From Deltaproteobacteria bacterium (lineage in GTDB: Bacteria > Myxococcota_A > UBA9160 > UBA4427): DNA of 64,000 bases. Within the stretch, counting starts at the first letter, position 1, and each line of letters starts with the position of its first letter. Location: contig NZHD01000020.1 in the NCBI GenBank assembly GCA_002691205.1, forward strand, positions 1,615 through 65,614. The letters are read 5' to 3'. Both the position numbers and the translations under genes were made by a program. Shown in pieces: positions 2,104-24,125 of the stretch. Below the pieces are notes generated by a model that worked only from the letters and a program-made list of their open reading frames with translations, was not told the DNA's origin and searched no databases.

Positions 2104-2224
2104 TCGGCCACGGATACGGATTCAAAAAGCCCACTGGCCTGGCTTAGGTCATCGATCTAATCCGATCAGCCGACGCCATCCCTCGGGTTTGAGCCACGGG
2201 GTGAACCACACCGCGAGAACGGGT

Positions 2225-5767: not shown

Positions 5768-6072
5768 AAATCCAGATCAACTGGAAAGGCTTCTTAAAGT
5801 CGTTCTCATGCCTATCCTCAAGGAACTAAACGCTTTTTTCAAGCATAAACACTTGAGACAAGCAATCTAGGCCTTCAAACGGCTCAATCCGCCCTTCTTG
5901 ACCCCGGGGGCCCCTGATTCAGGTCCGCAAACCGGACCCGCCCTTGGCCCCCTTTCGAGCGACCTCTAAACCCGAGAGTGACGAAAAGTACAGGCCAGGT
6001 GATCCGATCTCAGGACACCCACCGACTGATCTCCTAAGTGACGCGAAAATCGTTTCGCAAAGGAGAATCGAG

Positions 6073-7680: not shown

Positions 7681-9926
7681 TCATGATGAGAATAATCGCG
7701 ACCGCAACCCTGATGATCCTGCTTTTGCTTGGCTGCATGCCCGAGCCCGACACCGATGACAACGGGGATCGAAGCTGGGCCCAACAAGCCGTCCCCGAAC
7801 TTCTGGGTAGAAAAATCCGAGGCTGGGAAGAAACCGATGTGCTCGCCCAGGCCGTGGGCCTGCTCGGGCGGAGCAAAGTCAGTCAAGCCATCATGTTCGA
7901 CGACGCTTTCCGCATCTACTGGTCTGAAATCCTCATCGATCACATTCAGACGCAACGCCCTGGAGCCTCGGGAAACAGAACCGGGGTCACGAGCTGCTGG
8001 AATACGCCTATGGCGGGTCCGGATAGCGGAGACCTCGCACGCTGGATTGAGACTCATCATCCCGATGGAACGCTCGCCGTCTCCGCCGCCTCACCTTATC
8101 TCGGAGCCCGACCCTACGATTTTAATATGGTCGATATCATCCGCTCATCCATCGAACTCGACAACCTGAGTCCGATCTATCTCTCCAACCTAATTCCTTT
8201 CGTCATGAACGAAGGCTACAACAACGTGGCGACAGAGCGTCTCGGGGGCGAGTTCGACGAGATTTATCTCGGCCGTCCTCAATCCTGCATGACTTGCCAC
8301 AACGAAAACTACTCCGCCTCAGACCTTCCTGATTGGAAGAGAACCTTCCAGCCGTTCCCTAAAGTGGAAACGAAAGTCTTCGGTGGAGCGCTGGGTTCCG
8401 CCGAGACCCTTGCGTCATCCCATGCCATATTCAATCCGGAGATACGCGGCGGAGATTTCTATCCCTGGGATATCGACCCTTCGTGTGTCAGAAAATCCGG
8501 AGACCCTCTCCAGGGGCTCCGCCAATCTATCCCCGGGTCAGGCGGGGCGTACACAAAGCTCGGTTCGGTCACGGGCACAGGAAAACACATCCTCGACCTT
8601 GAAGAAGCCCTGCGAGATGGCGTGCAGAGTCTATCGGGTTCCGCCATCAACAGCTTTGTCAATGAGGGAGAGAGCACAGACTTGTCAGATAACGAAGCGC
8701 TGGCCTATTTACTCGCCCTAAAAATCACCGACAATCTGTGGCAGGAAGTGATGGGCGAACGACTCACTGTCGTTCACGGATATTCGCGCAATTCCCAGCA
8801 GCGCGAAACGATGCGCTTCCTCGCCGAAGACAAATTGATTGCGGAGCGCTGGTCTCTCCGAAACGTGCTCGAGGCTATCCTCACCAGCCGATGGTTCAAT
8901 CGATCGGCGCCCTACGTGGGTGATTCAACGATCAATCATTCAGCCTATCACCTGCCCATGGTTCTTGACCCTTGGCTCGCCAAGGCGCCTGGCGAAACCA
9001 GCGAACCCATCAACAACTTCAACGGGCAAGGCCGTGTGGTGCACAGATACTCGCCTCGAAATCTGATCCGATCGGCCGGCACGGCTCTGGGCCATGCTTC
9101 TCTGCCCGCCCACTTTGCGGCCGGCAGTGGCACAGACCGGAAGTTCCTTGAGAATCTGGGTCAGTACCTCAATGATTACAGCCCAGGAACTCGATCTGTA
9201 GATTTTCAGGGCATGATGAGTTGGGCCGCACGTTATGGATCCTGCCAAACCCCCACCGACACTGACACGGACTGGATCAACGAACTCACTTCGGCCGCCG
9301 GCGAATGGGATGCGCTTCATCCCACCGAGCCTCCGATTACACTCAGGGACTTAAGCTTAACCATGAAAGACTGGCTCGTGGGCGAGGCCACTCTGGACCA
9401 CGACGTCTCAGCCGGGACGGAGAGCGACGCCATCGAAGCGCTGTTCGGAATTGATCTTGACACCCCGCTCAACTCAATCTCTCCTTCATTCCTTGAAGAC
9501 AGGGCACGCCTTTACTGCGGCTCTCTCATCTCATCGCCCCATTTCATGTTGGCCGGAATCCGGCCCGGCGACTTGGGCTCTGGGTCACGACTACGGGTAT
9601 GCAATCCGGGAGAACCCTGCACTTGGATCGAAACCTGCGAAGCGTGGCTTCCCCTGCTAGAGGAAGCCTCGGACGAGGACCTTGAATGCACTCCAAGTAC
9701 TCAGACCTTAAGACGAACCATACACTTAACGCCGCCTACTCTGAACCGTCCGGAACTCACACGCCCCACCGCTGAATTTTCACCCGAACCGGTTGAGCTC
9801 CCACGGCCCCCCATTCCTTTGATCCCTCCTCAACCCCCGATGCCTACTCCCCCCGAGCCCCCTGCAGGCCTGCCATCACAAGAAACTGCCGCTCCCATGA
9901 CGGAACTGGATCACGGCCGCGTCTAA
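7677..9926 (+). CDS. Lipoprotein with one CxxCH heme-c motif and Pro-rich C-terminal tail; probable partner of the DUF1501 protein
   Basis: Lipobox LLLGC; SCMTCHN; 'WSLRNVLEAILTSRWF' resembles DUF1553/DUF1585-type segments; ATGA overlap with upstream gene. Confidence 0.65.
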   Translation: MIMMRIIATATLMILLLLGCMPEPDTDDNGDRSWAQQAVPELLGRKIRGWEETDVLAQAVGLLGRSKVSQAIMFDDAFRIYWSEILIDHIQTQRPGASGNRTGVTSCWNTPMAGPDSGDLARWIETHHPDGTLAVSAASPYLGARPYDFNMVDIIRSSIELDNLSPIYLSNLIPFVMNEGYNNVATERLGGEFDEIYLGRPQSCMTCHNENYSASDLPDWKRTFQPFPKVETKVFGGALGSAETLASSHAIFNPEIRGGDFYPWDIDPSCVRKSGDPLQGLRQSIPGSGGAYTKLGSVTGTGKHILDLEEALRDGVQSLSGSAINSFVNEGESTDLSDNEALAYLLALKITDNLWQEVMGERLTVVHGYSRNSQQRETMRFLAEDKLIAERWSLRNVLEAILTSRWFNRSAPYVGDSTINHSAYHLPMVLDPWLAKAPGETSEPINNFNGQGRVVHRYSPRNLIRSAGTALGHASLPAHFAAGSGTDRKFLENLGQYLNDYSPGTRSVDFQGMMSWAARYGSCQTPTDTDTDWINELTSAAGEWDALHPTEPPITLRDLSLTMKDWLVGEATLDHDVSAGTESDAIEALFGIDLDTPLNSISPSFLEDRARLYCGSLISSPHFMLAGIRPGDLGSGSRLRVCNPGEPCTWIETCEAWLPLLEEASDEDLECTPSTQTLRRTIHLTPPTLNRPELTRPTAEFSPEPVELPRPPIPLIPPQPPMPTPPEPPAGLPSQETAAPMTELDHGRV

Positions 9927-10052
9927 AATTCCTCTCCATCAAGTAGAGGAGATCGACCTTCACTCGTGCGAAGTGTTGAGACAGTCAGCCCCAGGTCAGT
10001 TCGGGACACCCATGCTTCCCCGCGATCGCGCGAGGCTCACTGAGACTGGCCC

Positions 10053-11234
10053 TCAATCGAGAACTTCGAAGGTCAGTCCCGCACGTTCAACGAGCGTAGG
10101 AATCAGCGCCGAGCCGAACGCAGCCGCAGGGGTCCAGACCCCCCCACCCAATTCGGGAGTCGCCTCGATCAGTTGAATGGACGCCTCGGCGATGATCTTT
10201 GACGTGGACCCGTAGCCGGGATCCTTGTCACCGCTCACGCGGACACGAATCGTCTCACCGTTCGCATGAGTTCCAAAGAACATCACCCCGTACCCGCCAG
10301 CTTCGCGCTCCTCTTTTGACGGACCCTCGCCAGGCTTCGGCGCTTCAGACCCTCCGCCCCCGAGCATCGCCTGAGAGATGGCGGCCATTCCACGGGCAGC
10401 CTGCTCCCCCGCTTCGCCGGTGCCCGTGAGGAACATCTCATCGTAAATGAAGTCCTCACCGTAAGGATGACCGAGAAGCGCGTTGGATCGGTGAACGTTC
10501 TTTGTGTTGATTGGGGCCATGAAAAACGGCGCCACCCAGCCCCCCGCGACCAAATCCTCTTCAATGTCCTGTCCAGAAGGCTGGTCGACTCCGGTGAACC
10601 CGTTGGAGAGACAGAACGGATTCATTAAGGCCTGCAATAAGCTCGGATCCTTCGCCACCGCCTCCGCGGTCGCCTGCCCGCTCGCGGCTGTTCCGCCTGA
10701 GAGAGTCCCGCGCATATCAATCACCCGCCCACGAACACGAGAGCAAGCACTGCCAAATCGGCGCTTCGCCTCTTCCTGAAGGAAGAGGACACCGAGGTCG
10801 AAGGGGATCGAATCAAAACCCGCGGAATGCACAATGCGTGCGCCGGTTTCTGCAGCACGCTCGCTAAAACGTTCGATGGTCTCCCGCATCCACAGCACCT
10901 CACCGGATAGATCGAGGTAGTCGGTGCCCATCTCGACGCACGCTTCCACAAGCGGCGTTCCATAAAGAGTGTAGGGTCCCACGGTCGTCACAACGCATTG
11001 CGTTTGCTCGACCATGGCCACGAGACTTGCTGGCTCGCTCGTGTCAGCCACCACAAGAGGCGTATCCTTGGGCGCGCCGATTTCGTCACGCACCTCTTCA
11101 AGCTTCTCCAGGCTCCGCCCGGCCATAGCCCAGCGCGGCGCGCCCTCACGACGCACAAGATATTCGGCCACCAAGCGGCCAGTGAAACCGGTGGAACCAA
11201 AAACGATCAGATCAAACGGGCGAGACGAGGCCAT
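10053..11234 (-). CDS. Saccharopine dehydrogenase-like NADP-binding oxidoreductase
   Basis: GSTGFTG, AGRS, VGPYTLYG, YLDLSGE, GFDSIPFD and DPGYGSTSK motifs. Confidence 0.88.
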   Translation of the reverse strand: MASSRPFDLIVFGSTGFTGRLVAEYLVRREGAPRWAMAGRSLEKLEEVRDEIGAPKDTPLVVADTSEPASLVAMVEQTQCVVTTVGPYTLYGTPLVEACVEMGTDYLDLSGEVLWMRETIERFSERAAETGARIVHSAGFDSIPFDLGVLFLQEEAKRRFGSACSRVRGRVIDMRGTLSGGTAASGQATAEAVAKDPSLLQALMNPFCLSNGFTGVDQPSGQDIEEDLVAGGWVAPFFMAPINTKNVHRSNALLGHPYGEDFIYDEMFLTGTGEAGEQAARGMAAISQAMLGGGGSEAPKPGEGPSKEEREAGGYGVMFFGTHANGETIRVRVSGDKDPGYGSTSKIIAEASIQLIEATPELGGGVWTPAAAFGSALIPTLVERAGLTFEVLD

Positions 11235-11456
11235 AACTTGTTGCTTCTCCTTTTTCGTAGGGGCGACGATTTCAAAGAGCAGAATCTAACCCACAATCCA
11301 ACCCCAAGAGACCCATCAACCGTCTAAACTCACTCTGTATGGTCAGTATGAAGGCTCGGCATCCGAAACTCTTACGTGCTAGAGAAGGGATTATCAGTCA
11401 ACCTCTCTGTGATCTGGGATCCAGGGCCAAAAGGCCCTTCGGAGGTGAGAACGGGC

Positions 11457-12839
11457 ATGCGAGCATCAGAGCAAGAAACTGCGGTCAAACAATGGGTGGC
11501 CGAACACATGAACGCCGACATCCTTCGCATCGAACGGCAAGCCCGTTGGAGGCCTGTCTGGTATGTCGATGCGGCTCAATCTGAAAAAAAGTGGCGACTC
11601 TGTGTCAGGGGAGACCGGGTTGACGCACGGATTGGTTTCACACTGGAACACGAAATGCAGCTTCAGCAGCTCCTCCACCAGCATGGGCTTCCCGTCCCCC
11701 AGGTCCATGGCTTCATCGATTCGCCTCGAGCCTACGTGATGGATCGCGTTGAGGGTCAGGAACGCTTCGAAGACACCACACCTCAAGCCGAACGCGACGT
11801 CGTTTTGGACAGCTATATAAAAAGCCTGGCGCAGATCCATAGCCTCGACGTCGAGCCCTTTGCACGCGCAGGCATCCTCAGAGCGGACAAGCCCTCTCAC
11901 TCTGGACGCGTAGGCATGCAGGTCTATGAGCAAGCCTATCGAGCCAGCAAAAAGAGGCCTGATCCTTTTCTGGAATTTGCCCTGGGTTGGTTGAAACGCA
12001 ATCCACTGCAAAACCGGAGTCAAGAGAGTGTCGTACTCTGGGATACAGGGCAGTTCCTTCATTCAGCCGGTGAAGTCACCGCCATCATTGACCTGGAAAT
12101 TGGCCACATCGGCGACCCCATGATGGATCTTGCTGGATTCCGCATGCGCGCGCGCGAAATCGGATTTTCTGATTTTGACCGTCTTTACACGGTGTACTCA
12201 AAGAACGGGGGGCAAGCTGTAGACCGAGAAGCCATACAGCACTACTACTTCGCCTTTGCACTCTGTAACCAGCTGGCTTTTCACTCCGCACTCGCGGCCC
12301 CGCCGCCGGGTTCCGACTATATGATGAACCTCCGCTGGTGCATCGAAACTAACCTCTACGCCATCGAAGCCCTTGCTGATATTTTAAGCCTTGAGCTGGA
12401 GCCAGTGCCGCCCCTCACTGCACAAACCTCATCTACAGATATCGCCCACACCCACCTCGTCGAATGGCTCCGAAATTTTGAGCCCCATGACCCCGGTGAG
12501 GCGCACACCGTCCGAAGTGGCTTCAGGCTCGCTCGGCATCTCCAGCGAGCCAGCCAAGTGGGGATACAGGCCGAGGCGGCCGACCGTCAAGACTTGACCT
12601 CTTTACTCGGCCAGACGCCGGTCAACCCTCAAGAGGCGGACGCTGAATTAGAAGCCTTTGTCATCCGTGACGGGGGCACGCACGACCTCGCTCTGATTAA
12701 GCTGTTCCACAGGCGACTCGTGCGAGCGCTCTCAACACTCGGGCCTGAGGGATCGGCCATCGCACGACATTATCCTGTCGAGGGCCTAGAGATGGCCGAG
12801 CCCGGCCAGCTGTCGTCGAAAAGGTCCCCCAGCCTGTAA
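11457..12839 (+). CDS. Aminoglycoside phosphotransferase (APH)-family protein
   Basis: LPVPQVHG, YVMDRVEG and IIDLEIGHIGDPMMDLA motifs; RBS GGAGGTG before ATG 11457. Confidence 0.75.
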   Translation: MRASEQETAVKQWVAEHMNADILRIERQARWRPVWYVDAAQSEKKWRLCVRGDRVDARIGFTLEHEMQLQQLLHQHGLPVPQVHGFIDSPRAYVMDRVEGQERFEDTTPQAERDVVLDSYIKSLAQIHSLDVEPFARAGILRADKPSHSGRVGMQVYEQAYRASKKRPDPFLEFALGWLKRNPLQNRSQESVVLWDTGQFLHSAGEVTAIIDLEIGHIGDPMMDLAGFRMRAREIGFSDFDRLYTVYSKNGGQAVDREAIQHYYFAFALCNQLAFHSALAAPPPGSDYMMNLRWCIETNLYAIEALADILSLELEPVPPLTAQTSSTDIAHTHLVEWLRNFEPHDPGEAHTVRSGFRLARHLQRASQVGIQAEAADRQDLTSLLGQTPVNPQEADAELEAFVIRDGGTHDLALIKLFHRRLVRALSTLGPEGSAIARHYPVEGLEMAEPGQLSSKRSPSL

Positions 12840-12992
12840 GATTTCACTCTTCCTCGCAAACATTCCGTGAGCCGGCCTACGTCAAAAACAAAATCCACGA
12901 GAAAACCCTTCAAGAGCACCCGCCGCAAGGGAAGGCTAGCGTCCCTGAGCGGCCCAACGAAGGTCTGAATTTTGTACACAAGGGAGAGACAC

Positions 12993-13820
12993 ATGAGCAG
13001 TGATCCATGGAGCTATGACGGGAAAAAAGTGGTCATCACCGGCTGCTTTTCCGGCATGGGAGAAGCGGCTGCCCGCGAACTCGTTCGGCTGGGAGCCGAG
13101 GTACACGGGGTGGACATCAAGGAGTCCCCGGTGGAAATGGCGTCTTTCCAGAAGGTGGATCTCCGCGAAACCGCGCAAATCGATGTGGCCCTGGGTGAGA
13201 TCGGAGGCGATATCGATGCCTCCTTTTACTGCGCGGGCTTGCCCGGCACATTCCCTCCCCTTGAAGTCATGCAGGTCAACTTTGTCAACATGCGGCACTG
13301 GACCTACGAAGTGGCCCAACGCATGCCTCAAGGTGGAGCCCTTGCAGTCATCGCATCTACCGCCGGACACGGTTGGGCCGAACGAAGAGACGCCATTGAG
13401 GATTTAATGACCACCCCCGATGCCGCTTCTGGCTTTGCGTGGTGCGAAGAAAACCTCGATACCGTGGCTGACGGATATCTGTTCTCGAAAATGTGCACCC
13501 AATATTTCACCATGCGGACCGCAGCCGAACTCATCCAAAAAGGAATTCGCATTAATTGCGTCAACCCGGCCCCTACCGAATCTCCCATGATGAAAGACTT
13601 TGAAGCCACCGCGCCGCCCGCCCTGATCAACGCCTGGGCCCAGCCCATTGGACGCCGGGCACAACCGATTGAAATGGCCCTGCCTCTCATCTTTCTCAAC
13701 AGCGATGCCGCTGGCTTTATCAGCGGGCACAATCTGCACGTCGACGGGGGGTGGGCCGGAAGCATCGACTCAGGATCACTCAACCAGAACGAACTGATCC
13801 AGAAAGCGTTAGAGGGCTGA
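12993..13820 (+). CDS. SDR oxidoreductase (coniferyl-alcohol / 3-alpha-hydroxysteroid dehydrogenase-like)
   Basis: VVITGCFSGMG, YLFSK (YxxxK), GIRINCVNP and LHVDGG. Confidence 0.88.
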   Translation: MSSDPWSYDGKKVVITGCFSGMGEAAARELVRLGAEVHGVDIKESPVEMASFQKVDLRETAQIDVALGEIGGDIDASFYCAGLPGTFPPLEVMQVNFVNMRHWTYEVAQRMPQGGALAVIASTAGHGWAERRDAIEDLMTTPDAASGFAWCEENLDTVADGYLFSKMCTQYFTMRTAAELIQKGIRINCVNPAPTESPMMKDFEATAPPALINAWAQPIGRRAQPIEMALPLIFLNSDAAGFISGHNLHVDGGWAGSIDSGSLNQNELIQKALEG

Positions 13821-14048
13821 ATCACTCGACCTCTCAGACCATCCCGGCCCAGGCACTTGGACTCCCCGCCCGGAAGGCCAAACTGCGCTCCGGCAGCGCC
13901 AGACTCAGCCCAAAACAGCCGAGGGAGGGACACCGAGCCCTAAAGCCCCTTCTGAGCGTCCCCTCGCGGGGTTTAAACAGCTTTCAAAAAGTGCATACAG
14001 CGTGTTATGGTGGAAACGCGGTCTAACACCTTCATTAAGCTAGTTTTC

Positions 14049-17000
14049 ATGACCAGAGATCAAGCCCCCCCAGTAAACGCAAAAGATACACTCGCAAAGC
14101 GTTTTTCCGAGATGGTCTCGTCCAATCGAGATGCGCCCGCTGTTGAATCGGGCGACTTTAGCTTGAGCTATGCCGAGCTTGAGGAAGCCGCTGCTCCATG
14201 GGCTGCCGAGATCGGCGCTCGGGGCGGCCTGGCACCGATTATCATCGCCTGCCACCGTCAGGAGCAAGCCGTCGTTGGAATGGTCGCGTGCATGATGGCG
14301 GGTCGTGTCTGGACGATCCTTGACCCCAAGACCCCCACGGTTTTACGTGAGCAGGTTCTTCGCGACCTTCCGGACAGCCTCGTCTTGACTGAACCCGACC
14401 CAGGCCAGGTTTTCGATTTACCCGCAGAACGTCACCTTGTTCTTCCCCACGCGATCCCCTCAAGTCAACACACTTTCGAACCTGGGATGGCCAGCAGCAC
14501 CGACCCGATCTGCATTCTCTATACCTCGGGTTCTACGGGCGTCGCCCGGGGCGTACTGCACTCCCATTCAAGCCTTTTAGAAGTTGTGGCCAAGTCCACC
14601 AACCATTTTGATCTCGGTCCTGATGACCGCATCGCAATGCTTTCACCCTTAGGACATGTCGTCGGCACAGTGGCGGTGCTGCTCGCATTGATGAACGGCG
14701 GAAGACTCTCGATTTATGAAGTCAAAACCAAGGGCCTGGCTGGTTTACCCAATTGGCTAAGCGACCGGAAGATTACCTACTTTCATACCATCACCACTAT
14801 TTTTCGACGCCTGGCAGCCGCAGTGGAAGACCCAAAGACATTGAGTGCGCTGAAGGTTGTGGCCGTAGGAGGTGAGGCCGTCACTGCCCGTGATTATGAG
14901 TTGTTCCAAAAAACATTTCCGGCCAAGACCCAACTCAGAAATTCATACGGGGCCACCGAGTCCATCGATAGTTTTCAATATGTCGTGGGCAAAGGCGAGC
15001 CTATGCTGGGAATGAGCCTGCCGATTGGTTATCCGTGTAGCGATGAAGATCTCTTTAAGTTGATGACTGAAGACGGTGAAGAAACCGATTCGGTCTCCGG
15101 CGAACTCTGGGTAAGCAGCCCCTGTCTCGCACTAGGCTACTGGATGCGTCCCGAAGACACAGCAACGCGGTTCCCCGTGGATCACGAAGGAAGACGCTGG
15201 TTTCGCAGCGGAGATCTATGTCGCATGGATGATGCGGGGCGCATGCATTGTCTCGGTCGGGGTGAAGGCGTCGTTCAGTTGCGCGGTGTGGATGTTGATC
15301 TAAATCGAATCGAACAGGAAATGCGACAACTCCAGGGCGTGAGCGAAGTGGTTGTAAATGCCACCGATAACGATGATGGAGATACCGAACTCTTCGCCTT
15401 CTACTGCGAGGACGGAGAATCAGACCCACAGCAAATGCGAAACGATCTAGGCAAGCGGCTGCCCGAATACATGGTCCCCCATCAGTTCATCCTGATGGAT
15501 CGCCTTCCCTTGACGAGCAGTGGCAAGGTTGACCGTCGCCGCTTGCGATCTGCGAACCAACAACAAAGCCTTGAACATATTTTGGCATGGCGGGAGAAGG
15601 AATTAGACACGACGACCCGGCGACAACCTCGGGAACTCATTGTGGTCACCGAGTCACGTCAAGATGCCGAGCCACTGCTCAAGCAGTGTCAAGAGCTGGA
15701 GATCCGCGGCCACGCATACACACCGGGTGATTCAGCCGACAGCCTCCCCTCTTTTGACAGCATTCTTGTCCCTGTCCACGCCGGGTTTTCCATAGAACAA
15801 GGGGCAGCCGGGGCGGCCGAAGAGCTACAGAAGCTGCTCAGTGCGCTGAAGGAACTGCTCGCAAGAGGGGGGGAAGCCGGGGCTCGCCTAATGTTCATCA
15901 CGTGTCAAGCCAGCCATCAGCCCGGACAGAGTGAACAGAACTTAAATCCCTTCCAGACGATGCTCTGGGGAGTCGCGCGTGGATTACGCCGCGAATTCCC
16001 AGGCCTAGACTGTCGCATCCTTGACATGGAAACCAGTGATGATCTGCCCGCCGTTCTGCCCGAATTTATGGTTCCCGAGAATTCCGATGACCACGTCATG
16101 CTACGAAGCGGGCAACGCTTTGTCGCGCGCATACTTGAGCAAAGCACATCTGATGATCGCCTCGTCCTTAAAAAGGAGGCCAGCTATCTAATTACCGGGG
16201 GCCTAGGCGGACTGGGACTGAGCGTGGCTGAGGCCTTTGCCAAATCCGGCGCAGGGCGGTTATACCTCCTCGGCCGAAGCGCAGCTAATCCTGAAGCCAG
16301 TCGTCGAATACAAGAGATTGAGCGTTCCGGCACAAAAGTAGAGATCTGCTGCGCGGACATCAGTGACCCCGCTTTAATCACCTCGCTTCTGGCTCAAATG
16401 GAGAACCTAAAAGGCATCGTCCACCTGGCCGGTGTCACGCACTTTGAACTTTTTGAGAAGCAGGACCCTACGGATTTCAGAGCTGTTCTCGCCCCCAAGC
16501 TAGACGGTGCCTGGAACCTGCACCAAGCCAGCCTACAACTAGATGACCACCTGGATTTTTTTGTAATGAGTTCGTCCATCACCGCCCTATTGGGAATGAC
16601 GGGGCATGTGGACTATGCCGCAGCGAACGCTTTTCTTGATGGCCTCGCAGATTTTCGCTGCGCATCAGGATTGCCAGGGGCCAGCATTGACTTCGGCACA
16701 CTCGACGGAGGCATGGTGGACAACGAAGCCCTGCGCCTCTGGCTACAACGCGAAGGACTTTTGGCGATTTCTATGGATGAGGCGGTAGACAGCATCTTGA
16801 GCACACAACCCATGAGTGGAGGTTGGAATGTTCGTGCCAGGATGAACTGGTCCGCCGTGTTAGCGATGCAAAGCCCTGGAAACTTACCGTTCTTTTCTGA
16901 ATTAGCTGACGTGCAAAAGCAAAAGAGCAAAGGAGACGCTTCCCCTGGAAAAAGCCTCGAGGCCGTCAGCCTTTCTGAATTGATGGCGGCGATCCTCGAG

Positions 17001-17930
17001 ATCTGGGCCACGGTTCTGTCCTTGGATACAGTCGATGAAGACGCTGATTTTTTCGAACTGGGTGGACATTCTCTAGCGTTACTCGACGTCCACTCGCGCT
17101 TGTGCAACCAGTATTCCTTGAACACGCCCGTAAGCGACTTTTTTGTTCACACGACTGCGCGCACCCTGGCCGAAGCATTAATGCACGGAAAGAGTCAAAA
17201 ACGCCACAATGCTCTCATTTTGCTGCAGAAGAGCGAAGCCACAAAGCCATTGATCATGATTAATTCCACAGCCACCGCATCGAACCTCGCTGCAAAATTG
17301 CCAAAACGCTCCGTTTTCAGCGCCAATATGTTTCGCCTGACCGCAGATATCCCCACGGAGCAGTTGCAAGAGGATCACATTTGGAGATTCGCCAACTACA
17401 TGGCCGAGGACATTGATGATCTGACCAAAAAAGAAGGCTGCCATCTTCTTGGTTTTTGCCAGGACAGCCTCCTCACTGTAGAACTGGGACGCGCGCTTTT
17501 AGAGCGCTCGGTGCCGATCCATAGCCTGACTCTAATCGATGCGGTCTTCGGAGCAGATCAAGCATTGAATCTAAAAATGCGACTTCGAGCCCTACGCGAG
17601 ATAGGCCCTAGTTACCTTGGCGATAAATTCAAACGAATCCTCAAGAGCAGTCCGAACGAGAATAAGGAGAAAGAGGAAATCAGCTTTAACGAATCGTTTT
17701 ACCGCGGCTATGTCAAACATGCCTTCTCTCGTATCCCCGAGGTTTTTGAGGGAGAGATTCATCTAATTGTCTCAAGTGAATGGCGCCTAAAAGACATCTC
17801 TGGCGTCGAAGCAGCAGCAAATCGCGTCACCGTTCATCCCATCCGAAGCAGCCATGGCGATATCTTTAGAGAGCCTCACCTCAGCGATTTAGCCTCTTAC
17901 ATGAACGCAATCACCGAAGATTCACTCTGA
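14049..17930 (+). CDS. Stand-alone NRPS-like synthetase with domains A-KR-T(PCP)-TE
   Basis: A: YTSGSTG, NSYGATE, RSGD, GKVD. KR: ITGGLGGLG, HLAGV, YAAAN. T: FFELGGHS. C-terminal alpha/beta-hydrolase-like region: LLGFCQD, SHGDIFREP. No C or KS domain. Confidence 0.85.
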   Translation: MTRDQAPPVNAKDTLAKRFSEMVSSNRDAPAVESGDFSLSYAELEEAAAPWAAEIGARGGLAPIIIACHRQEQAVVGMVACMMAGRVWTILDPKTPTVLREQVLRDLPDSLVLTEPDPGQVFDLPAERHLVLPHAIPSSQHTFEPGMASSTDPICILYTSGSTGVARGVLHSHSSLLEVVAKSTNHFDLGPDDRIAMLSPLGHVVGTVAVLLALMNGGRLSIYEVKTKGLAGLPNWLSDRKITYFHTITTIFRRLAAAVEDPKTLSALKVVAVGGEAVTARDYELFQKTFPAKTQLRNSYGATESIDSFQYVVGKGEPMLGMSLPIGYPCSDEDLFKLMTEDGEETDSVSGELWVSSPCLALGYWMRPEDTATRFPVDHEGRRWFRSGDLCRMDDAGRMHCLGRGEGVVQLRGVDVDLNRIEQEMRQLQGVSEVVVNATDNDDGDTELFAFYCEDGESDPQQMRNDLGKRLPEYMVPHQFILMDRLPLTSSGKVDRRRLRSANQQQSLEHILAWREKELDTTTRRQPRELIVVTESRQDAEPLLKQCQELEIRGHAYTPGDSADSLPSFDSILVPVHAGFSIEQGAAGAAEELQKLLSALKELLARGGEAGARLMFITCQASHQPGQSEQNLNPFQTMLWGVARGLRREFPGLDCRILDMETSDDLPAVLPEFMVPENSDDHVMLRSGQRFVARILEQSTSDDRLVLKKEASYLITGGLGGLGLSVAEAFAKSGAGRLYLLGRSAANPEASRRIQEIERSGTKVEICCADISDPALITSLLAQMENLKGIVHLAGVTHFELFEKQDPTDFRAVLAPKLDGAWNLHQASLQLDDHLDFFVMSSSITALLGMTGHVDYAAANAFLDGLADFRCASGLPGASIDFGTLDGGMVDNEALRLWLQREGLLAISMDEAVDSILSTQPMSGGWNVRARMNWSAVLAMQSPGNLPFFSELADVQKQKSKGDASPGKSLEAVSLSELMAAILEIWATVLSLDTVDEDADFFELGGHSLALLDVHSRLCNQYSLNTPVSDFFVHTTARTLAEALMHGKSQKRHNALILLQKSEATKPLIMINSTATASNLAAKLPKRSVFSANMFRLTADIPTEQLQEDHIWRFANYMAEDIDDLTKKEGCHLLGFCQDSLLTVELGRALLERSVPIHSLTLIDAVFGADQALNLKMRLRALREIGPSYLGDKFKRILKSSPNENKEKEEISFNESFYRGYVKHAFSRIPEVFEGEIHLIVSSEWRLKDISGVEAAANRVTVHPIRSSHGDIFREPHLSDLASYMNAITEDSL

Positions 17931-17933
17931 CTC

Positions 17934-18641
17934 ATGCTTCCTCCTGAACTCAGGCGCGATGAAAAAAACAGCATGCGTGCTTCACCCCAATTTTGGCAGG
18001 GGCTTTGGCGTCGCTGGCGCGGAAAAGCTCCACAGGAAAAAATCTTCATCATTGGTTTCCACAAGACAGGCACGTCGAGCTACGGCCGCGCCTTGCAACG
18101 TTTGGGCTGTCGCGTTGCCAGTCGGTTGAGGGAAGGGCAAGACTATCAACCCGCCGAAGATGGTGCCTTGCCGACTTTTTTGGCCCAACGAGCAGAGTCT
18201 GTGCTGGAAGAATTTGACGCCTTTCAAGACACGCCTTGGTTTCTTATGTACGAAGAGATTTTCGAGCGCTACCCCGATTCAAGGTTCATACTCACCCTAC
18301 GCGATGAGAAGGCGTGGCTCAAAAGCGTTCAGCGACACTTCGCAAAAAAGTTTTTCCCCTACCATGAGGCGATCTACGGCTCATTAGATAGTTTTGAGAA
18401 CGCAGAGAGCTACCTGCGCTGCTATCGCGCACACAACGAGGCCGTGCGCACTTTCTTTAAAGGGCGCGGCCACCTTCTGGAAGTTGATCTAAAAGAGAGC
18501 GACTGGAAAACTTTGGCGAATTTTCTCAAAGTCCCCTGCCCGTCCGGCGACTTTCCCCACGCCAATCAAGGAGACGATCGAGGACTCTGGGTCAGTAAAC
18601 TACGTGATCAGTTAAAGCAACTCTATTACGGTCGTGGCTAA
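17934..18641 (+). CDS. PAPS-dependent sulfotransferase family protein
   Basis: IFIIGFHKTGTSS 5'-PSB loop, YPDSRFILTLRD...WLKS, FPHAN. Confidence 0.85.
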   Translation: MLPPELRRDEKNSMRASPQFWQGLWRRWRGKAPQEKIFIIGFHKTGTSSYGRALQRLGCRVASRLREGQDYQPAEDGALPTFLAQRAESVLEEFDAFQDTPWFLMYEEIFERYPDSRFILTLRDEKAWLKSVQRHFAKKFFPYHEAIYGSLDSFENAESYLRCYRAHNEAVRTFFKGRGHLLEVDLKESDWKTLANFLKVPCPSGDFPHANQGDDRGLWVSKLRDQLKQLYYGRG

Positions 18642-18672
18642 ACCCAAGCTGCTCAACCCACAAAGCAGAGAT

Positions 18673-20622
18673 CTACTCGATGTACCCGAGAGCCCGAAGG
18701 GCCTCTTCCGTTTCGATGGGGAAGTCGCCCTGCCTACTTTCCCGACTACTCCCTTCGTAAAAGCTAGCGTCGATCCATTCCCATAAGGCTCCCTGCAGTT
18801 CCGCTACAACTTCAGGGTTTTCATCCGCAACATTACGTTCCTCGAGCGGGTCTACTGAGAGATCGTAGAGCTCAAGCAAAACGATACGATAGTGATAGGG
18901 ATTGAAATATTCCTCTGGCACCCACAAACGCCCGAGCCCTTCCACGATGGCGTCGAGACCGACAGAAAGACGGTAAAAATCTGTCAGCAGCTTATACCGA
19001 TCCGTCCGAATCGCCTTGGTCCTGTAGCCCGAACGGCCTGTGCCGATTGAGAACTGATACGCACGAGATGGACTGGGCTGCTCGCCGAGAATCAACGGAG
19101 CAAGATCCTGCCCTTGGGCCACTGGATTCTGAGGCAGGCCAAGCAGCGAAAGGACCGTCGGATGAATGTCCACAAGACTCACCGCACTCTCTATCCTCTT
19201 GCCATTCGGGAGATCTGGATGAATCAAAACAAGCGGCACATGAATCGTGTGGTCATATGGATTGCGATGACCAAAGTAGACTCCACGATGCTCACCTTGC
19301 AGGGATTCTCCGTGGTCAGCCGTAATGATGACCAGCGTATTGCGCCAGAGATCGAGGGCCGTCATCTGGTCAAAGAGTTGCCCCAGTTTGTCGTCCAGGT
19401 ATCGAATCTCGGCATCATACTGAGAAATATAGAAGTCAAGTTCATTGTTGTTATAGAACGGATGACTACTCTGGATAGGCTCGTACATGTCGTTTTCCGG
19501 AGCCAGAGCGCCACGGTGCTCATCGGCCAAATCGTCTTTAGAGTAAATTTCCCTATAGGCAGGAGGAACGATGTAGGGTTTGTGAGGATCCATATAGTGG
19601 AGCCAAACAAAGAATCGATCATCCTTGATCTCGCTTAGGAGTGGCAGAGCCACCTCATTGAGAAGGCGGGCCTCTTCAGGGTCAACTCGGTAAACCGCCT
19701 CTTTTCCTTTGATTTCGAGGGGCAAATATTCTTCAAACCCCTGGTGTAGATTAAAAGCCTTCCCCAATCCCGGGTTCCCGGTGGCCCCAGCGGTTCGATA
19801 GCCCTTACTCTGAAGCAACTCAGTCAGTGTGATGTTTGAATCGTCCAACATTCCGCGATTTTCCATCAAGCGGTGCGTCGGTGGATAAGTTCCAGTCAGG
19901 ATGGTTGCCAACGAAGGAGCTGTGGAAACTTTTTGAGAGATCGCATGATCAAAAACAATTCCCATTTCACTCAACTTAGTCAGCTGGGGCGCCGTATCTC
20001 GATCGTATCCGTAAACTGGAATGTGATCTGCGCGCAACGTATCGATGGTAATCAGCATGACATTCGTCGTCTCTCGGCTGAGGGGTGTCTCCAACAAAGT
20101 AACGGTCTCGTCTCGAAGACTTGAGACACCCGGATAGTCAGTCGCCCTCGTCGCGTGCAAGACCCACGCAGAGACGGCCATCAGCAAGACCAACGGAAAA
20201 CCGATGGGAAGAGCGGCCACTCTCAAATAGGTGATGCCGTACGTCGTCAAAGCCGAACCTGCCGAGACGATCAGAGCGCCCACCCCAACCGCCACAAGCT
20301 CCAGCGGTCGGTCGACCCGACCCAGAACCGCCAGACCTCCCACAACGAACGCAACGAATGTGACGAAGCCGACTCCCAATGCCGTCGCCCATCTCCGCCT
20401 TTCTCGACTGAAGAAAAAAGCCGTCACACTCCCAGCTAAAGCAAAGCAGCCACCGATTACACTCAAGAACAGAGAGGCGGAAAACAAATAAAAACGTGTC
20501 GAGTCCGGCATGGGCAGGTGATCATAAAAGACGACTAAAATCCCGGTAAGAACCACTGAAACCATCAGCCCACACAAGAAGCCTGCGGTGGACGAGCTCA
20601 ACTTTCCTGACTCCTCAGACAT
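18673..20622 (-). CDS. Membrane-anchored sulfatase-like hydrolase/transferase (alkaline phosphatase superfamily)
   Basis: About 5 N-terminal TM segments; NVMLITIDTLRAD, STAPSLATILTG, HYMDPH, ADHGE, LRALGY. Confidence 0.85.
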   Translation of the reverse strand: MSEESGKLSSSTAGFLCGLMVSVVLTGILVVFYDHLPMPDSTRFYLFSASLFLSVIGGCFALAGSVTAFFFSRERRRWATALGVGFVTFVAFVVGGLAVLGRVDRPLELVAVGVGALIVSAGSALTTYGITYLRVAALPIGFPLVLLMAVSAWVLHATRATDYPGVSSLRDETVTLLETPLSRETTNVMLITIDTLRADHIPVYGYDRDTAPQLTKLSEMGIVFDHAISQKVSTAPSLATILTGTYPPTHRLMENRGMLDDSNITLTELLQSKGYRTAGATGNPGLGKAFNLHQGFEEYLPLEIKGKEAVYRVDPEEARLLNEVALPLLSEIKDDRFFVWLHYMDPHKPYIVPPAYREIYSKDDLADEHRGALAPENDMYEPIQSSHPFYNNNELDFYISQYDAEIRYLDDKLGQLFDQMTALDLWRNTLVIITADHGESLQGEHRGVYFGHRNPYDHTIHVPLVLIHPDLPNGKRIESAVSLVDIHPTVLSLLGLPQNPVAQGQDLAPLILGEQPSPSRAYQFSIGTGRSGYRTKAIRTDRYKLLTDFYRLSVGLDAIVEGLGRLWVPEEYFNPYHYRIVLLELYDLSVDPLEERNVADENPEVVAELQGALWEWIDASFYEGSSRESRQGDFPIETEEALRALGYIE

Positions 20623-20891
20623 GATTCCCTCTTGTTTTTAGCTTTTCGTTCACCCTTATCCATTTAGATTCCCAGCCTAGGGAGCCGACCAAGTCTAGTG
20701 CAAATCAGGGATTAGAACGATTGAGCCCACCATTTCCAAAAAACCCAGCAAAGGATGCGCCTGGCACGTGGCGCCGGAAGGTCCACAGGGGCTCGACTGA
20801 ACAGAGGACGAGTCGCGATTTCAACCGCTTATTTTACACCCTTGGCCATGTCGGGTAGGATTCGGCATGGAGCGTTTTCTCGAGTGGTACA

Positions 20892-21647
20892 GTGACTGTC
20901 ACGACGCCTAAAGGTTCGCCAGAGAATTCCGGCAAGGGCCCAGTGGACTCTCCTTACACGTATCGAGAAGTCCATGGCCTTCGCTCGCGCCTATCGGACC
21001 TCAAATTTGCCGCGGCCTACTGGGTCTGGCAAAGAATGATTCACAGATATGCCCAAGACGCTCGGTCAAATCTATCCATCCTAGAGGTCGGTTGCGGTGC
21101 GGGGAACTTCGTGAAGTGCCTCAAGGGCTGGTATCCAAATGCTCGACTCTCCGCCATCGATCTCGATGAAGCCGTGGTCGCCCCATGTGCGCTTCGACAT
21201 CCCGACGTTTGCTTTGCCCGAACAAGCTCTGAGCAACTCCCTTTTGCTTCTAATAGCTTTGACGTGATCTCCGCTCTTCAAGTCATCGAGCACTTTCCCT
21301 GCCCAGAGGACTTTCTTGCTGAGGCCCATCGTGTCCTTCGACATGAAGGGGTCCTGCTGCTGGCCACCCCCAACACTGAAGGGCTTGCGGCGCGCCGACT
21401 CGGAGAGGCATGGCCAGGCATCCGCCCCGATCATATCTCTCTACGAACGCCTAACCAGTGGCGTTCGGCGATCACAGAGGCGGGCTTCGAGTCCCTTTCC
21501 GAGGGAACCACTCTCTTCGCAGGTTTCAAATGGCTGGGGAGGCCTCCCCTATCTCTGCCATTCCAACTTCTGCAGTCGATCTTTGGTTGGTTCCCATGGC
21601 CATGGGGCGAAAGCTTCATGATGGTCGCTCGACGAACGAGCCCCTGA
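20892..21647 (+). CDS. Class I SAM-dependent methyltransferase
   Basis: ILEVGCGAG, LPFASNSFDVI, VIEHF, ATPN. Confidence 0.88.
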   Translation: MTVTTPKGSPENSGKGPVDSPYTYREVHGLRSRLSDLKFAAAYWVWQRMIHRYAQDARSNLSILEVGCGAGNFVKCLKGWYPNARLSAIDLDEAVVAPCALRHPDVCFARTSSEQLPFASNSFDVISALQVIEHFPCPEDFLAEAHRVLRHEGVLLLATPNTEGLAARRLGEAWPGIRPDHISLRTPNQWRSAITEAGFESLSEGTTLFAGFKWLGRPPLSLPFQLLQSIFGWFPWPWGESFMMVARRTSP

Positions 21648-21671
21648 ATGCTCAAACCATCCCAGCCGACC

Positions 21672-22907
21672 ATGCGAATTCTTCAAGTCACACCCTATTA
21701 CGAACCTGACTTTCAAAAAGGCGGCATCGTTCGATCCACAAGCATCCTTTGCCGCGAGTTGGTCCGACAGGGACACCAAGTCACTGTGTGGACCACGCAA
21801 GCACCCGAAGGGCAGAATGATTCGCCTCTCCATCAATCGATTGATATGGGCGGAGTCGAAGTCATTTATCATCGCAACCTCGCGGGCGGCTTCTGGTTTG
21901 ACGAACACATGGTTCGATCCGTTGTGCACATTGAACGCTACGACCTCGTGCATGTCGCGGCCTTCTGGCAGGCCTTTGGCTGGCCGGCCCTCTATGCGGC
22001 ACACCGTAAAGGCATTCCAACCGTCATTTCCCCACGTGGGAGCTTGGTGATGGTTCACAATCAGGCCCGAGAAGCCTGGAAGCATCGCGCCATGTACTGG
22101 CTACACAATCACCGCGCTCTTAATCGAGCCAGCGCAATTCACTTCACTGCGGCGATTGAACGTCAAGATGCCGTCGATCTCGGCCTTCGATCCCCCATGT
22201 TTCGAGTCGCCAACGCCTTAGCGAATGAAGACTTTCGAGCACTCCCAGATCGAGAAAGTTGGCGACAACGCTTAGGCGTCAAAGAGGATCAACCGCTCAT
22301 TCTCTTCCTCGGAAGACTCGACCGGCGAAAGGCTTTGGATGTCCTCATTGAGGCTTTTCACCAATCTCAGGTGGGAAAAGATCGAGCGCAACTGTTGCTC
22401 GCAGGACCGGATGACGGCGTCGAGGCGGCGCTCAGGGATCAGGTGAGTGCCCTTGGACTGGCGTCAAGGGTTCGTTTTCTCGGCCTCGTCGATGCGGAGG
22501 TTCGCGCCGGCTTATTTTCGGCTTCGGACCTTTGCACACTGACTTCTCACGCTGAAAACTTCGGAAATGCGGCGGGCGAAGCCATGTCGGCTGGACTCCC
22601 CGTCATCGTCTCACAGACCTGCGGAATCGCTGAGCACATCGAGGAATATCAAGCAGGGCGAGTTGTGCCGGTGGAATCAACGGCCATTGCCCGTGCCCTC
22701 GATGAACTTCTTAAGGCGCCTCATGAGCTGTCCCAGATGGGCAATCGAGCTCGCCAATTAGTCGAAGAGAAATATGGCGCCCACGCGGTAGCGACCAACA
22801 TGGCCAAGGCATATCAGGACGTCCTCACGGGAAATCGCTCTCCAGAATGCGATTGGCTCGAGTTCAAAGAACACAAAAGACCGACGACAAGAGCACCCTC
22901 AAGATAG
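21672..22907 (+). CDS. Glycosyltransferase family 4
   Basis: MRILQVTP...GG, SPRG, FLGRLDRRK and ENFGNAAGEAMSAGLPVI (EX7E). Confidence 0.9.
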   Translation: MRILQVTPYYEPDFQKGGIVRSTSILCRELVRQGHQVTVWTTQAPEGQNDSPLHQSIDMGGVEVIYHRNLAGGFWFDEHMVRSVVHIERYDLVHVAAFWQAFGWPALYAAHRKGIPTVISPRGSLVMVHNQAREAWKHRAMYWLHNHRALNRASAIHFTAAIERQDAVDLGLRSPMFRVANALANEDFRALPDRESWRQRLGVKEDQPLILFLGRLDRRKALDVLIEAFHQSQVGKDRAQLLLAGPDDGVEAALRDQVSALGLASRVRFLGLVDAEVRAGLFSASDLCTLTSHAENFGNAAGEAMSAGLPVIVSQTCGIAEHIEEYQAGRVVPVESTAIARALDELLKAPHELSQMGNRARQLVEEKYGAHAVATNMAKAYQDVLTGNRSPECDWLEFKEHKRPTTRAPSR

Positions 22908-22932
22908 ACACAAGCGGAGCCGAACAAGAGCC

Positions 22933-23964
22933 TTAAGGGCCGGGCTCCCCATCGGCTCCATCGGCACTCAGCGCACCTCCACAACTTGAACCAGAACCCG
23001 CGGTGCAACCAAAGCAGTGAGGGCCCACCCCCACCCTGTTCCCCTCAAGCTCGCCGAGGTCATCAATCTGCCAGATATTTTGAACCGATCCTGGGATTGA
23101 AATTTCACAGGCCTGATTAAAATCGCAGTCGAAGAAATATCCTTGATGATCAACACTCAAGAGACTCCGACACATGAGATCCGGAAGAGTCTCGGGATTG
23201 AAATGAGCGATCAGCAAAGACATATACTCATCGTATGCGCCTTCCCGCTGAAGCGAATGTGCAAAACGTTTGATGGGCATATTGGTCAGGGTCAGAAGCC
23301 GATCAAAAACGATGCCGTGCTCCGCACCCAGCCGCTCCCGAAACTCCGCCTCCAGAACGCTCTGATTGCCAGGAAGAAAAGCGCCACCCGGGTTATAGAC
23401 TAAGTGCAGAGCGTGCTCATCATTCCCCTGCCCGTAGCCCAACGTATTGAGGAGTTGCAATGCCTTGATACTTCGATCAAAGACATTTCGGCCGCGCTGG
23501 TTTTCGACATTTTCGGGTGTGTAACAAGGAAGCGACGCGACCACCTCGACCCCATGATCGGCTAAGAACTGAGCTGTATCGTCTTGCCCCGACTCAAAAA
23601 GCACGGTGAGATTGCAACGATCAATCACTCGACGTCCAAGCTTGCGAGCTCCTCGAACCAGGTCGCGGAACCCTTCATGGAGCTCCGGGGCCCCTCCCGT
23701 CAAGTCCAAAACCTCGACGGCCGGATTCAGTGCAAGCAACTCCAGCACTCGGACACACCCCGCTTCCGAAAGACGCTCTGTACGTAAGGGCCCCGACTCT
23801 ACATGGCAGTGATGGCAGGCCAAGTTGCAGCGCTTCCCAATATTCACCTGAAGGGTCTTGATCGAGCCTCGTCTGAGGTGAGCCAAAGGCGAATTCGCCA
23901 AATGAGTACTTGGGCGATCCTCAGCCCTAAAAGAGGCAAGCGAGCCTGAGTTTCCTTGAGCCAT
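22933..23964 (-). CDS. arsS: ArsS-type radical SAM protein (arsenosugar-biosynthesis family)
   Basis: TLQVNIGKRCNLACHHCHV, DLTGGAPE, IDRCNLT, ASLPCY, DCDFNQ and C-terminal HCFGCTAGSGSSCGGAL. Confidence 0.85.
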   Translation of the reverse strand: MAQGNSGSLASFRAEDRPSTHLANSPLAHLRRGSIKTLQVNIGKRCNLACHHCHVESGPLRTERLSEAGCVRVLELLALNPAVEVLDLTGGAPELHEGFRDLVRGARKLGRRVIDRCNLTVLFESGQDDTAQFLADHGVEVVASLPCYTPENVENQRGRNVFDRSIKALQLLNTLGYGQGNDEHALHLVYNPGGAFLPGNQSVLEAEFRERLGAEHGIVFDRLLTLTNMPIKRFAHSLQREGAYDEYMSLLIAHFNPETLPDLMCRSLLSVDHQGYFFDCDFNQACEISIPGSVQNIWQIDDLGELEGNRVGVGPHCFGCTAGSGSSCGGALSADGADGEPGP

Positions 23965-24125
23965 CCCACAGCATCCCTCATTTTGCGACGACCCGAAACC
24001 CGCCTTTCCACGCCCTCCTCCTGAATTTATGTCTTGAGACGCGCCCGGGGAAAAGCAGACCCTTCCAATGCCTCAACCCGAATGGCCCGCCACCCAAGAG
24101 GGGAAGCACGGACGATCAGAGATAC

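Follow-up and report, generated by a model that had tools for sequence, protein, structure and literature searches.

What can be made by a single protein that is predicted to activate, reduce and release its own substrate, and that contains no domain for joining this substrate to another? The question is raised by a gene in a 64,000-nucleotide stretch (hereafter called the window) of contig NZHD01000020.1 from a marine deltaproteobacterium. Its product, P0001, consists of adenylation (A), ketoreductase (KR), thiolation or carrier (T) and thioesterase (TE) domains in that order, and it is followed by a gene for a sulfotransferase (ST), P0002. We propose, with a probability of roughly 0.45, that P0001 is a free-standing single module which loads a 2-oxo acid, reduces it and off-loads it via Cys1151 of its TE, and that P0002 sulfates the product. 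Every domain type is known. For the combination of an A domain apparently not meant for amino acids, a KR of the polyketide synthase (PKS) style, a carrier and a cysteine TE, with neither condensation (C) nor ketosynthase (KS) domain, no characterised example was found.

A first-pass annotation of the window had already placed A, KR, carrier and TE-like domains in one protein. The first three were confirmed by Pfam, and the fourth by its relatives, a structural model and Foldseek matches. The motif positions given there proved exact: ITGGLGGLG at residue 729 (16191), YAAAN with Tyr870 (16614) and GGHS with Gly1019 (17061). Residue numbers of P0001 count from ATG 14007; ATG 14049, the second in-frame ATG, is Met15. 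The features on which the argument draws are as follows.

14049..17930, + strand: A-KR-T-TE synthetase gene (P0001), 1293 amino acids (aa); the longest open reading frame (ORF), from ATG 14007, has 1307 aa
14115..15527, + strand: adenylation domain; Pfam AMP-binding at residues 37-379 (E 2e-49), AMP-binding_C at residues 435-507
14658-14660, + strand: Val218, in the column of PheA Asp235 (the amino-binding Asp); motif GHVVG (A4)
14949-14954, + strand: Gly315-Ala316, in the column of StsA Gly414-Met415; A5 motif
14967-14969, + strand: Asp321, at specificity-code position 330
15525-15527, + strand: Lys507, in the column of PheA Lys517 (the A10 Lys)
15534..16706, + strand: PKS-type ketoreductase; structural subdomain about 510-724, catalytic subdomain 725-900 (Pfam KR, E 4.5e-54)
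16989..17180, + strand: carrier (thiolation) domain, residues 995-1058 (Pfam PP-binding, E 1.4e-13)
17070-17072, + strand: phosphopantetheine-bearing Ser1022 in LGGHSL
17190..17927, + strand: type I thioesterase domain, residues 1062-1307 (246 aa); motifs GFCQDS, LIDAVF and SSHGD
17457-17459, 17538-17540 and 17853-17855, + strand: Cys1151, Asp1178 and His1283, the triad by alignment
17730-17732, + strand: Arg1242 of 'AF[S/A]R' in the TE lid region, by alignment
17934..18641, + strand: PF17784 (Sulfotransfer_4) sulfotransferase gene (P0002), 235 aa, by Pfam
18649..18668, no strand: inverted repeat, within the 31-nucleotide (nt) gap between the stop of the sulfotransferase gene and that of the convergent gene 18673..20622 (-)

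Synthetase and sulfotransferase genes three nucleotides apart

The synthetase probably starts at 14049 rather than 14007, since the N-terminus of the orthologue P0199 aligns to the position of ATG 14049 and since the interval from the first ATG to the second has lost one nucleotide, at 14033, in one metagenome strain. This strain also has two insertions, at 13860 and 13869; together with the deletion they form a pattern expected of non-coding DNA. At the other end of the gene the stop codon (TGA, 17928-17930) is followed by CTC and by the ATG of the sulfotransferase gene at 17934, which is the 3-nt gap that the first-pass annotation had reported. Such spacing argues for coupled expression of the two genes. 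Next come the inverted repeat and the convergent gene, stop codon first, and for this reason the repeat is likely to mark the end of the synthetase-sulfotransferase transcription unit. The repeat was located by a consensus scan alone, and the scan for promoters and terminators gave no more sites than shuffled sequences did.

The DNA of the locus is real and recurrent. Ten studies of marine or aquatic metagenomes contribute 20 runs in which it is partly present, and in 13 of these runs no less than half of the words sampled from it occur. Contigs from four runs, belonging to four studies, cover 12500-21000, mostly at 95-99% identity or more, and none has an indel within the synthetase or the sulfotransferase gene. 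The 17930/17934 junction is bridged by contigs of runs X3 (record 7) and X5 (record 21), from two studies, and the junction between the sulfotransferase and the convergent gene is bridged in runs X4, X5 and X8.

No condensation domain, ketosynthase or second carrier occurs on the 164-kb contig (C68) which contains the window, and the carrier of P0001 is the sole PP-binding match on it. The absence of partner domains, which had been noted for the window, thus holds for the whole contig.

Conserved residues of a seven-member synthetase family

Other proteins with the A-KR-T-TE arrangement do exist. With P0001 they make up a family of seven from four lineages, whose members share 79-81% (P0003 and P0199), 31% (P0122 and P0200), 32% (P0123) and 30% (P0178, which stands for a cluster of six members) identity with P0001. 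In all seven the GHVVG and YG[A/C/S]TE..D motifs, the A10 Lys, the Lys, Ser, Tyr and Asn of the KR, the carrier Ser and the Cys, Asp and His of the TE are kept, and all seven end in a TE of their own. Because every catalytic residue persists at approximately 30% identity, the alignments indicate that these enzymes form a functional family, as opposed to an assembly artefact.

The best solved relative of the P0001 A domain in a PDB sequence search is LgrA (E 1.5e-86, 294 bits). In the A4 region the FDxS of canonical A domains is replaced by GHVVG in the alignment. To place the substrate-binding residues, StsA Ile306 and Gly414-Met415 were mapped onto P0001 through the alignment of a Nostoc StsA homologue (L023) with 6ULX, using a numbering offset of 82 residues. 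Ile306 falls directly after the His of PLDHIGG, and Gly414-Met415 lies within FGMSE, which is A5. The position of PheA Asp235 and StsA Ile306 holds a hydrophobic residue, Val, in all seven family members. The A5 motif of the family is YG[A/C/S]TE as opposed to the canonical YGPTE, with Gly-Ala in P0001 and Gly-Cys or Gly-Ser in its orthologues; it contains neither the Met nor the Pro.

Keto- and hydroxy-acid A domains are described as having exchanged the amino-binding Asp for a hydrophobic residue (PMC11253843). According to the same account, A domains for amino acids conserve a Pro where StsA has Met415, the M415P change kills StsA, and LgrA gains keto-acid activity by the changes P483A and P483M (PMC11253843). 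The residues of the P0001 A domain would therefore fit a 2-oxo or a 2-hydroxy acid. Both changes, Val218 and Ala316, lead away from amino acids and, in combination with an intact KR, they point to the loading of a keto acid which is then reduced; the keto rather than the hydroxy substrate is favoured because the KR has retained its catalytic residues.

The catalytic set of the KR comprises TGGLGGLG, Lys831, Ser856/857, Tyr870 and Asn874, and the Lys, Ser, Tyr and Asn are invariant in alignments of six and of seven sequences. The NCBIfam model PKS_plus_SDR spans residues 510-1059 of P0001, which means that the KR carries an N-terminal structural subdomain as in polyketide synthases. In the PDB this region matches the KR of AmphB and mycocerosic acid synthase. 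The LDD motif and the Trp marker, both indicators of KR stereochemistry, were not seen in the P0001 KR. The KR and the carrier are separated by about 60 aa, and there is one AMP-binding_C match only (435-507). Since the KR-carrier-TE tail resembles the last part of a PKS module, P0001 seems to have arisen independently, by fusion of an A domain from a nonribosomal peptide synthetase (NRPS) to a PKS KR-acyl carrier protein (ACP)-TE tail, that is, an independent route to the same logic.

How close does this bring P0001 to the known reducing modules? The A-KR-T modules of the StsA/CesA type (6ULW) and the AerA-like loading modules, like P0001, have a hydrophobic residue for the amino-binding Asp, followed by a KR and a carrier, and the expected chemistry, from a 2-oxo acid to a tethered 2-hydroxy acid, would be shared. 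The first-pass annotation had set the protein beside the A-KR-T units of cereulide, valinomycin and aeruginosin assembly. That kinship is contradicted by the complete A domain, the PKS-style KR, the lack of a pseudo-Asub and the fact that ordinary NRPS A domains are nearest. 6ULW is not among the best 60 PDB matches of P0001 (lowest listed score 102 bits). The StsA homologue L023 matches 6ULW with an E-value of 2.8e-213, whereas the A domains of P0001 and L023 are only 25% identical (87 bits). The A5 motif of the StsA type has Gly-Met where P0001 has Gly-Ala. A pseudo-Asub with a split motif, approximately 70 residues between KR and T, is described for StsA-type modules (PMC7923214). In L023 the spacing between KR and carrier is about 158 aa and includes an Asub-like stretch which matches LgrA 1685-1804, whereas P0001 has its shorter spacer and a single, complete Asub after the core. 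Moreover, unlike an initiation module of the StsA/CesA type, P0001 ends in a TE of its own and is not followed by a C domain. Judged by its closest relatives and by the arrangement of Asub and spacer, P0001 is not a cereulide-type (StsA-type) depsipeptide module. L023 itself (1556-11362, + strand, of Nostoc sp. ChiQUE01b, NZ_JAVRBM010000053.1) is an ORF of 3269 aa whose domains run A-KR-T-KS-AT-DH-KR; the module at its start, which loads a keto acid onto a PKS, also matches McyG (E 9e-157).

A, KR, T and TE domains are combined in one polypeptide, as in P0001, in the C-A-KR-T-TE termination modules ClyF and CrpD (PMC7923214) and NatD (PMC11355689), in which the TE is described as freeing a product that contains a hydroxy acid. 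These proteins are of the StsA type, contain a C domain and take over a chain, acyl or peptidyl, from upstream, whereas P0001 lacks both a C domain and a partner on its contig and has a Cys TE. The stand-alone A-T-TE or 'NRPS-like' enzymes are single-module and self-releasing like P0001, but without a KR. Their characterised representatives, fungal and bacterial, are the quinone and furanone synthetases.

The cysteine thioesterase and the sulfotransferase

The identity of the C-terminal domain was not evident from Pfam. It scores 17.5 bits on PF00975, below the gathering cut-off of 26.4, and no PDB sequence match was obtained for it. An exhaustive HMMER search with the TE over 1.84 billion cluster representatives retrieved 78 proteins at E <= 0.001. 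Eight of ten relatives scanned with Pfam are above the PF00975 cut-off; P0127 scores 25.3 bits and P0123 has no PF00975 match. An AlphaFold model of the P0001 TE, made from an 18-row alignment, has a predicted local distance difference test (pLDDT) score of 90.2 and a predicted template modelling (pTM) score of 0.89. Its top Foldseek matches are all type I TEs of NRPSs, PKSs or fatty acid synthases (FAS), with E-values of 6e-11 to 2e-8. The TE of Vlm2 (valinomycin synthetase) is first (6.1e-11), and the TEs of tautomycetin, NocB, SulM, Pks13 and FAS are also found, at 1e-9 to 1e-8. The neighbours of the domain in a language-model atlas are 96-100% PF00975. As most of the scanned relatives pass the PF00975 cut-off and the model and its fold matches agree, the domain is by modelling a type I thioesterase of the alpha/beta-hydrolase fold, which bears out the fold suggested earlier.

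The small TE clade to which the domain belongs was aligned for 76 of 79 sequences, P0153, P0183 and P0184 being left out for want of a match of at least 150 aa. The nucleophile is Cys in 75 of the 76, P0198 with Ser being the exception; the Asp is present in all and the His in 75, P0189 being truncated in the alignment. The clade motif is G[F/Y]CQDG, and P0001 reads GFCQDS. The Ser-Asp-His triad is hence absent from the P0001 TE, which is a Cys variant with the Asp and His kept. Architectures were assigned to 81 sequences with phmmer domain probes, the carrier probe being weak and 'A-TE' probably A-T-TE. They comprise A-T-TE (16), A-TE (14), C-A-T-TE (7), C-T-TE (3), larger NRPSs, A-KR-T-TE (7) and one KR-T-TE fragment; approximately 30 of the 81 are therefore A-T-TE or A-TE. 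The Cys-TE domains (P0122-P0198) mostly terminate A-T-TE proteins of about 830-950 aa, and two database look-ups gave no member whose name indicates a known pathway. An 'AF[S/A]R' motif is present in five of the six aligned A-KR-T-TE members, and other clade members mostly have Tyr at the position of the Arg. In P0001 this residue, Arg1242, may serve to bind a negatively charged substrate group.

P0002 matches PF17784 with an E-value of 2.4e-35 (122.8 bits against a cut-off of 22.8). It carries GFHKTGTSS at residues 41-49 and RD at 122-123, which we take to be the 5'-phosphosulfate-binding (5'-PSB) and 3'-phosphate-binding (3'-PB) motifs for 3'-phosphoadenosine-5'-phosphosulfate (PAPS). A single-sequence model was unusable (pLDDT 43). 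The solved relatives are schistosome sulfotransferases, labelled 'oxamniquine resistance protein' in their PDB entries, SgdX2 (E 5.9e-8) and 9KF1; those of PF17784 act on small molecules. Among database relatives there is one with 78% identity, on a contig of 906 bp, and the remainder, which include flavobacterial proteins, have 49% or less. The proposed link between synthetase and sulfotransferase is based on the 3-nt spacing and on the stability of the junction in this population, and sulfation as a tailoring of the synthetase product is plausible.

Based upon these properties, the proposed reaction would run as follows. The A domain would activate a carboxylic acid lacking an alpha-amino group, most likely a 2-oxo acid, and load it onto Ser1022, and the PKS-type KR would convert the tethered 2-oxoacyl to a 2-hydroxyacyl group. 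The TE would then bind the acyl group in thioester linkage to Cys1151 and off-load it, transfer to an O or N nucleophile being likelier than hydrolysis; candidates for this nucleophile are a second unit, a group on the substrate itself and an acceptor. The sulfotransferase, translated from the same message, would sulfate a hydroxyl group of this unit with PAPS, either on the carrier or after release. The self-contained hydroxyacyl machine of the first-pass annotation is retained in this proposal in so far as every catalytic residue is in place, Val218 and Ala316 fit a keto acid and the arrangement recurs in four lineages; it needs amendment at the TE, where the nucleophile is Cys and not Ser.

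Several observations weigh against the proposal. The His-Val pattern of A4 is also general to acyl-CoA ligases and fatty acyl-AMP ligases (FAAL), and a fatty, aryl or hydroxy acid could on that account also be the substrate. P0001 lacks two marks of proven keto-acid modules, the strict Gly-Met motif and the pseudo-Asub, and the proposal does not account for the invariant Asp at specificity-code position 330 (Asp321). For none of 38 sulfotransferase homologues does the longest contig coincide in length with a contig holding an A-KR-T-TE orthologue, a weak negative since the contigs were short and the search used a word index. The same index, again a weak test, gave no fusion of the P0002 family to NRPS domains, two longer proteins (501 and 569 aa) having none on record. 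Linkage of the synthetase and sulfotransferase genes is seen in the population of this organism only, and NRPS and PKS genes on other contigs of the genome could act in trans.

Sulfotransferases that operate with a carrier and a TE have precedents in sulfazecin and in the olefin synthase (Ols) and CurM systems, and P0001 and P0002 have parts of both and the defining features of neither. They raise a second possibility, namely that the hydroxyl made by the KR is sulfated on the carrier in order to serve as a leaving group, with release by the Cys-TE through elimination, substitution or ring closure. We consider this quite unlikely, and the same applies to its two outcomes, a final product free of sulfate, by the logic of curacin and the olefin synthases, or a sulfate which sets up ring closure, as in sulfazecin.

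In sulfazecin biosynthesis SulN is described as sulfonating the carrier-bound tripeptide in trans before its transfer to the TE cysteine, and the C2818S variant as hydrolysing the product; the Q-C-N motif is said there to be unique to this TE (PMC11298585). A type I TE with a Cys nucleophile and a separate gene for a PAPS sulfotransferase are shared with P0001 and P0002, so that the use of a Cys-TE with a sulfotransferase in trans is known. SulM, however, is multimodular, ends in diaminopropionate and has the Q-C-N motif and an Arg-rich pocket, whereas P0001 reads F-C-Q-D and has an A domain which is probably not for an amino acid and which lacks the Asp needed for diaminopropionate. The SulM TE ranks just 12-13 among the fold matches of the P0001 TE. 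The F-C-Q motif and the A domain without the Asp235 residue do not fit a beta-lactam-forming TE of the SulM type; only the sulfotransferase does.

The olefin synthase and CurM contain KR-ACP-ST-TE, in which sulfate is described as the leaving group (PMC11730487). The set of four activities, ketoreduction, carrier, sulfotransferase and thioesterase, equals that of P0001 plus P0002. The chemistry depends on a KS to provide a beta-hydroxy group, and no KS is present on the contig; the sulfotransferase is here a separate gene after the TE rather than an internal domain between ACP and TE. In these two respects the pair does not match off-loading of the Ols/CurM type. The TE nucleophile of these systems is Ser, as opposed to Cys in P0001. 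Of the two best solved matches to P0002, one is SgdX2, called an 'activating sulfotransferase' of sungeidine biosynthesis in the title of a paper, which would favour sulfation of the activating kind; the other best solved relatives are the schistosome enzymes.

A more elaborate scheme, which is quite improbable, would have the 2-oxo acid converted to a carrier-bound 2-sulfooxy-acyl thioester. The Cys-TE would then carry out ester oligomerisation, ring closure or substitution with the sulfate leaving, and the invariant Asp at code position 330 would hold the substrate, an unusual keto acid, by a cationic or hydroxyl group. If true, the scheme would amount to a minimal pathway, as yet undescribed, by which bacteria of the marine plankton make a small metabolite that is sulfated or strained, and the G[F/Y]CQDG Cys-thioesterase clade would for the first time be given a function, in a chemistry which a serine TE does poorly.

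Returning to the single module with a tailoring sulfotransferase, the A-KR-T-TE family appears to have reached the logic of activating a keto acid and reducing it on a carrier independently of the cereulide and valinomycin modules. With a synthetase gene of 3.9 kb and a sulfotransferase gene of 0.7 kb, self-contained and recurrent in marine metagenomes, the pair is an easy target for heterologous reconstitution. This would define the substrate code of A domains with GHVVG and YG[ACS]TE..D, reveal the role of the Cys-thioesterase clade and show whether PF17784 sulfotransferases use carrier-bound substrates.

Distribution, other synthetases of the genome and neighbouring genes

The family is sparsely represented in the collections searched. 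Forty relatives, from the genus, family or order of the source organism, gave no match spanning the KR to the TE; their matches were to a KR alone or to a carrier plus an ordinary TE, and none of 400 further genomes of the phylum had a TE match at E <= 1e-8. A scan of 185,579 GTDB species genomes with the family alignment, a query that favoured generic patterns, gave no A-KR-T-TE among its best 80 loci. Loci L017, L051, L022, L026, L028, L033 and others, which had appeared to span the query, were rejected as adjacent PKS and NRPS genes. L023, with its StsA-type loading module, was the only locus with an A domain adjoining a KR among the matches listed. Among plasmids none of 2739 matching records covers at least 80% of the query, and a match in a Streptomyces canus plasmid was discarded as part of a giant hybrid synthetase in which A and KR are not adjacent. 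Scans of metagenome contigs yielded no relative with P0122 and, with P0244, two distant A-domain matches only (24-26% identity). In the literature collection searched no stand-alone A-KR-T-TE was found under the architecture spellings used, the examples being C-A-KR-T-TE.

Other contigs of the same genome carry two A-T-TE genes (C24:16572-19283, - strand, 904 aa; C86:13242-15977, + strand, 912 aa), two C-A-T-TE genes (C107:18484-22548, + strand, 1355 aa; C109:90651-94496, + strand, 1282 aa) and PKSs (C106 and C70). The TEs of these four NRPS proteins are canonical PF00975 thioesterases. Such genes would be needed if P0001 were not autonomous, its hydroxyacyl group being picked up as a starter by another NRPS or PKS and its TE acting as an editing or shuttling enzyme, a role for which SyrC and CmaE, Cys-containing aminoacyl-shuttling hydrolases, offer a parallel. 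The Cys nucleophile, which on the SulM C2818S data favours transfer over hydrolysis, would suit this arrangement. We nevertheless regard it as very unlikely, since none of the other NRPS or PKS genes of the genome is on the 164-kb contig, a C-terminal TE of its own is always present in the seven-member family, and the gene is missing from the relatives searched and so does not travel with other clusters.

The genes around the synthetase and sulfotransferase are listed below.

11376-12839, same strand as the synthetase: kinase resembling aminoglycoside phosphotransferases (APH-like), upstream; 132-nt gap to the next gene
12972-13820, same strand as the synthetase: short-chain dehydrogenase/reductase (SDR) of the coniferyl-alcohol-dehydrogenase subfamily, upstream; 228-nt gap after it
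18673-20622, - strand: 649-aa sulfatase-fold protein, convergent; hydrophobic N-terminal region of about 165 aa
20892-21647, + strand: methyltransferase with weak ArsM-like matches, diverging from the 18673-20622 gene
21648-22907, + strand: family 4 glycosyltransferase (GT4), matching in part two exopolysaccharide glycosyltransferases, HpsP and the XrtY-associated XYAG1
22933-23964, - strand: radical SAM protein, TIGR04167 (arsenosugar biosynthesis ArsS), 410.9 bits against a cut-off of 300
24224-24880, - strand: PEP-CTERM protein of 218 aa, near the GT4 gene
5944-9926, + strand: DUF1501 protein and a 749-aa ORF without a Pfam match, with a 4-nt overlap

Where sulfatases have the formylglycine motif C/S-x-P-x-R, the 18673-20622 protein reads T-A-P-S-L. 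This suggests an EptA/LtaS-type transferase with a Thr nucleophile and a membrane anchor of approximately 165 aa, and not a sulfatase. The GT4 and PEP-CTERM genes may hint at an exopolysaccharide or exosortase locus beside the synthetase.

From such neighbours the first-pass annotation had derived a glycan or cell-surface acceptor. In the corresponding reading the sulfotransferase is a mere operon neighbour, and the A-KR-T-TE protein passes an unsulfated hydroxyacyl group to an envelope or polysaccharide acceptor with its Cys-TE as the acyltransferase. The GT4, the methyltransferase, the membrane-anchored sulfatase-fold protein and the PEP-CTERM protein all lie within 7 kb. The fold matches include the TE of Pks13, an acyltransferase to trehalose, and no sulfotransferase link was seen for the distant orthologues. 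The neighbours, however, belong to other transcription units, the sulfatase-like gene being convergent behind the hairpin and the methyltransferase and GT4 genes forming a separate, diverging unit. In a genome of the same genus (G001, 82% complete and fragmented) their synteny is not conserved: DNA matches are confined to 6256-9610, 11595-12382 and 22967-23906, on three different contigs, and 12972-22907 has none. The 3-nt spacing with the sulfotransferase gene again argues for joint expression, the small-molecule substrates of the solved PF17784 relatives likewise speak against a polymer, and none of the seven family proteins has a glycan-related domain. On balance an envelope acceptor is unlikely, and the earlier assignment gains no specific support.

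Two other observations concern the same-genus genome. The ArsS gene is kept there with 75% DNA identity. The DUF1501 gene and the 749-aa ORF are the only single block of 5900-24000 that is kept, at 67% DNA identity.

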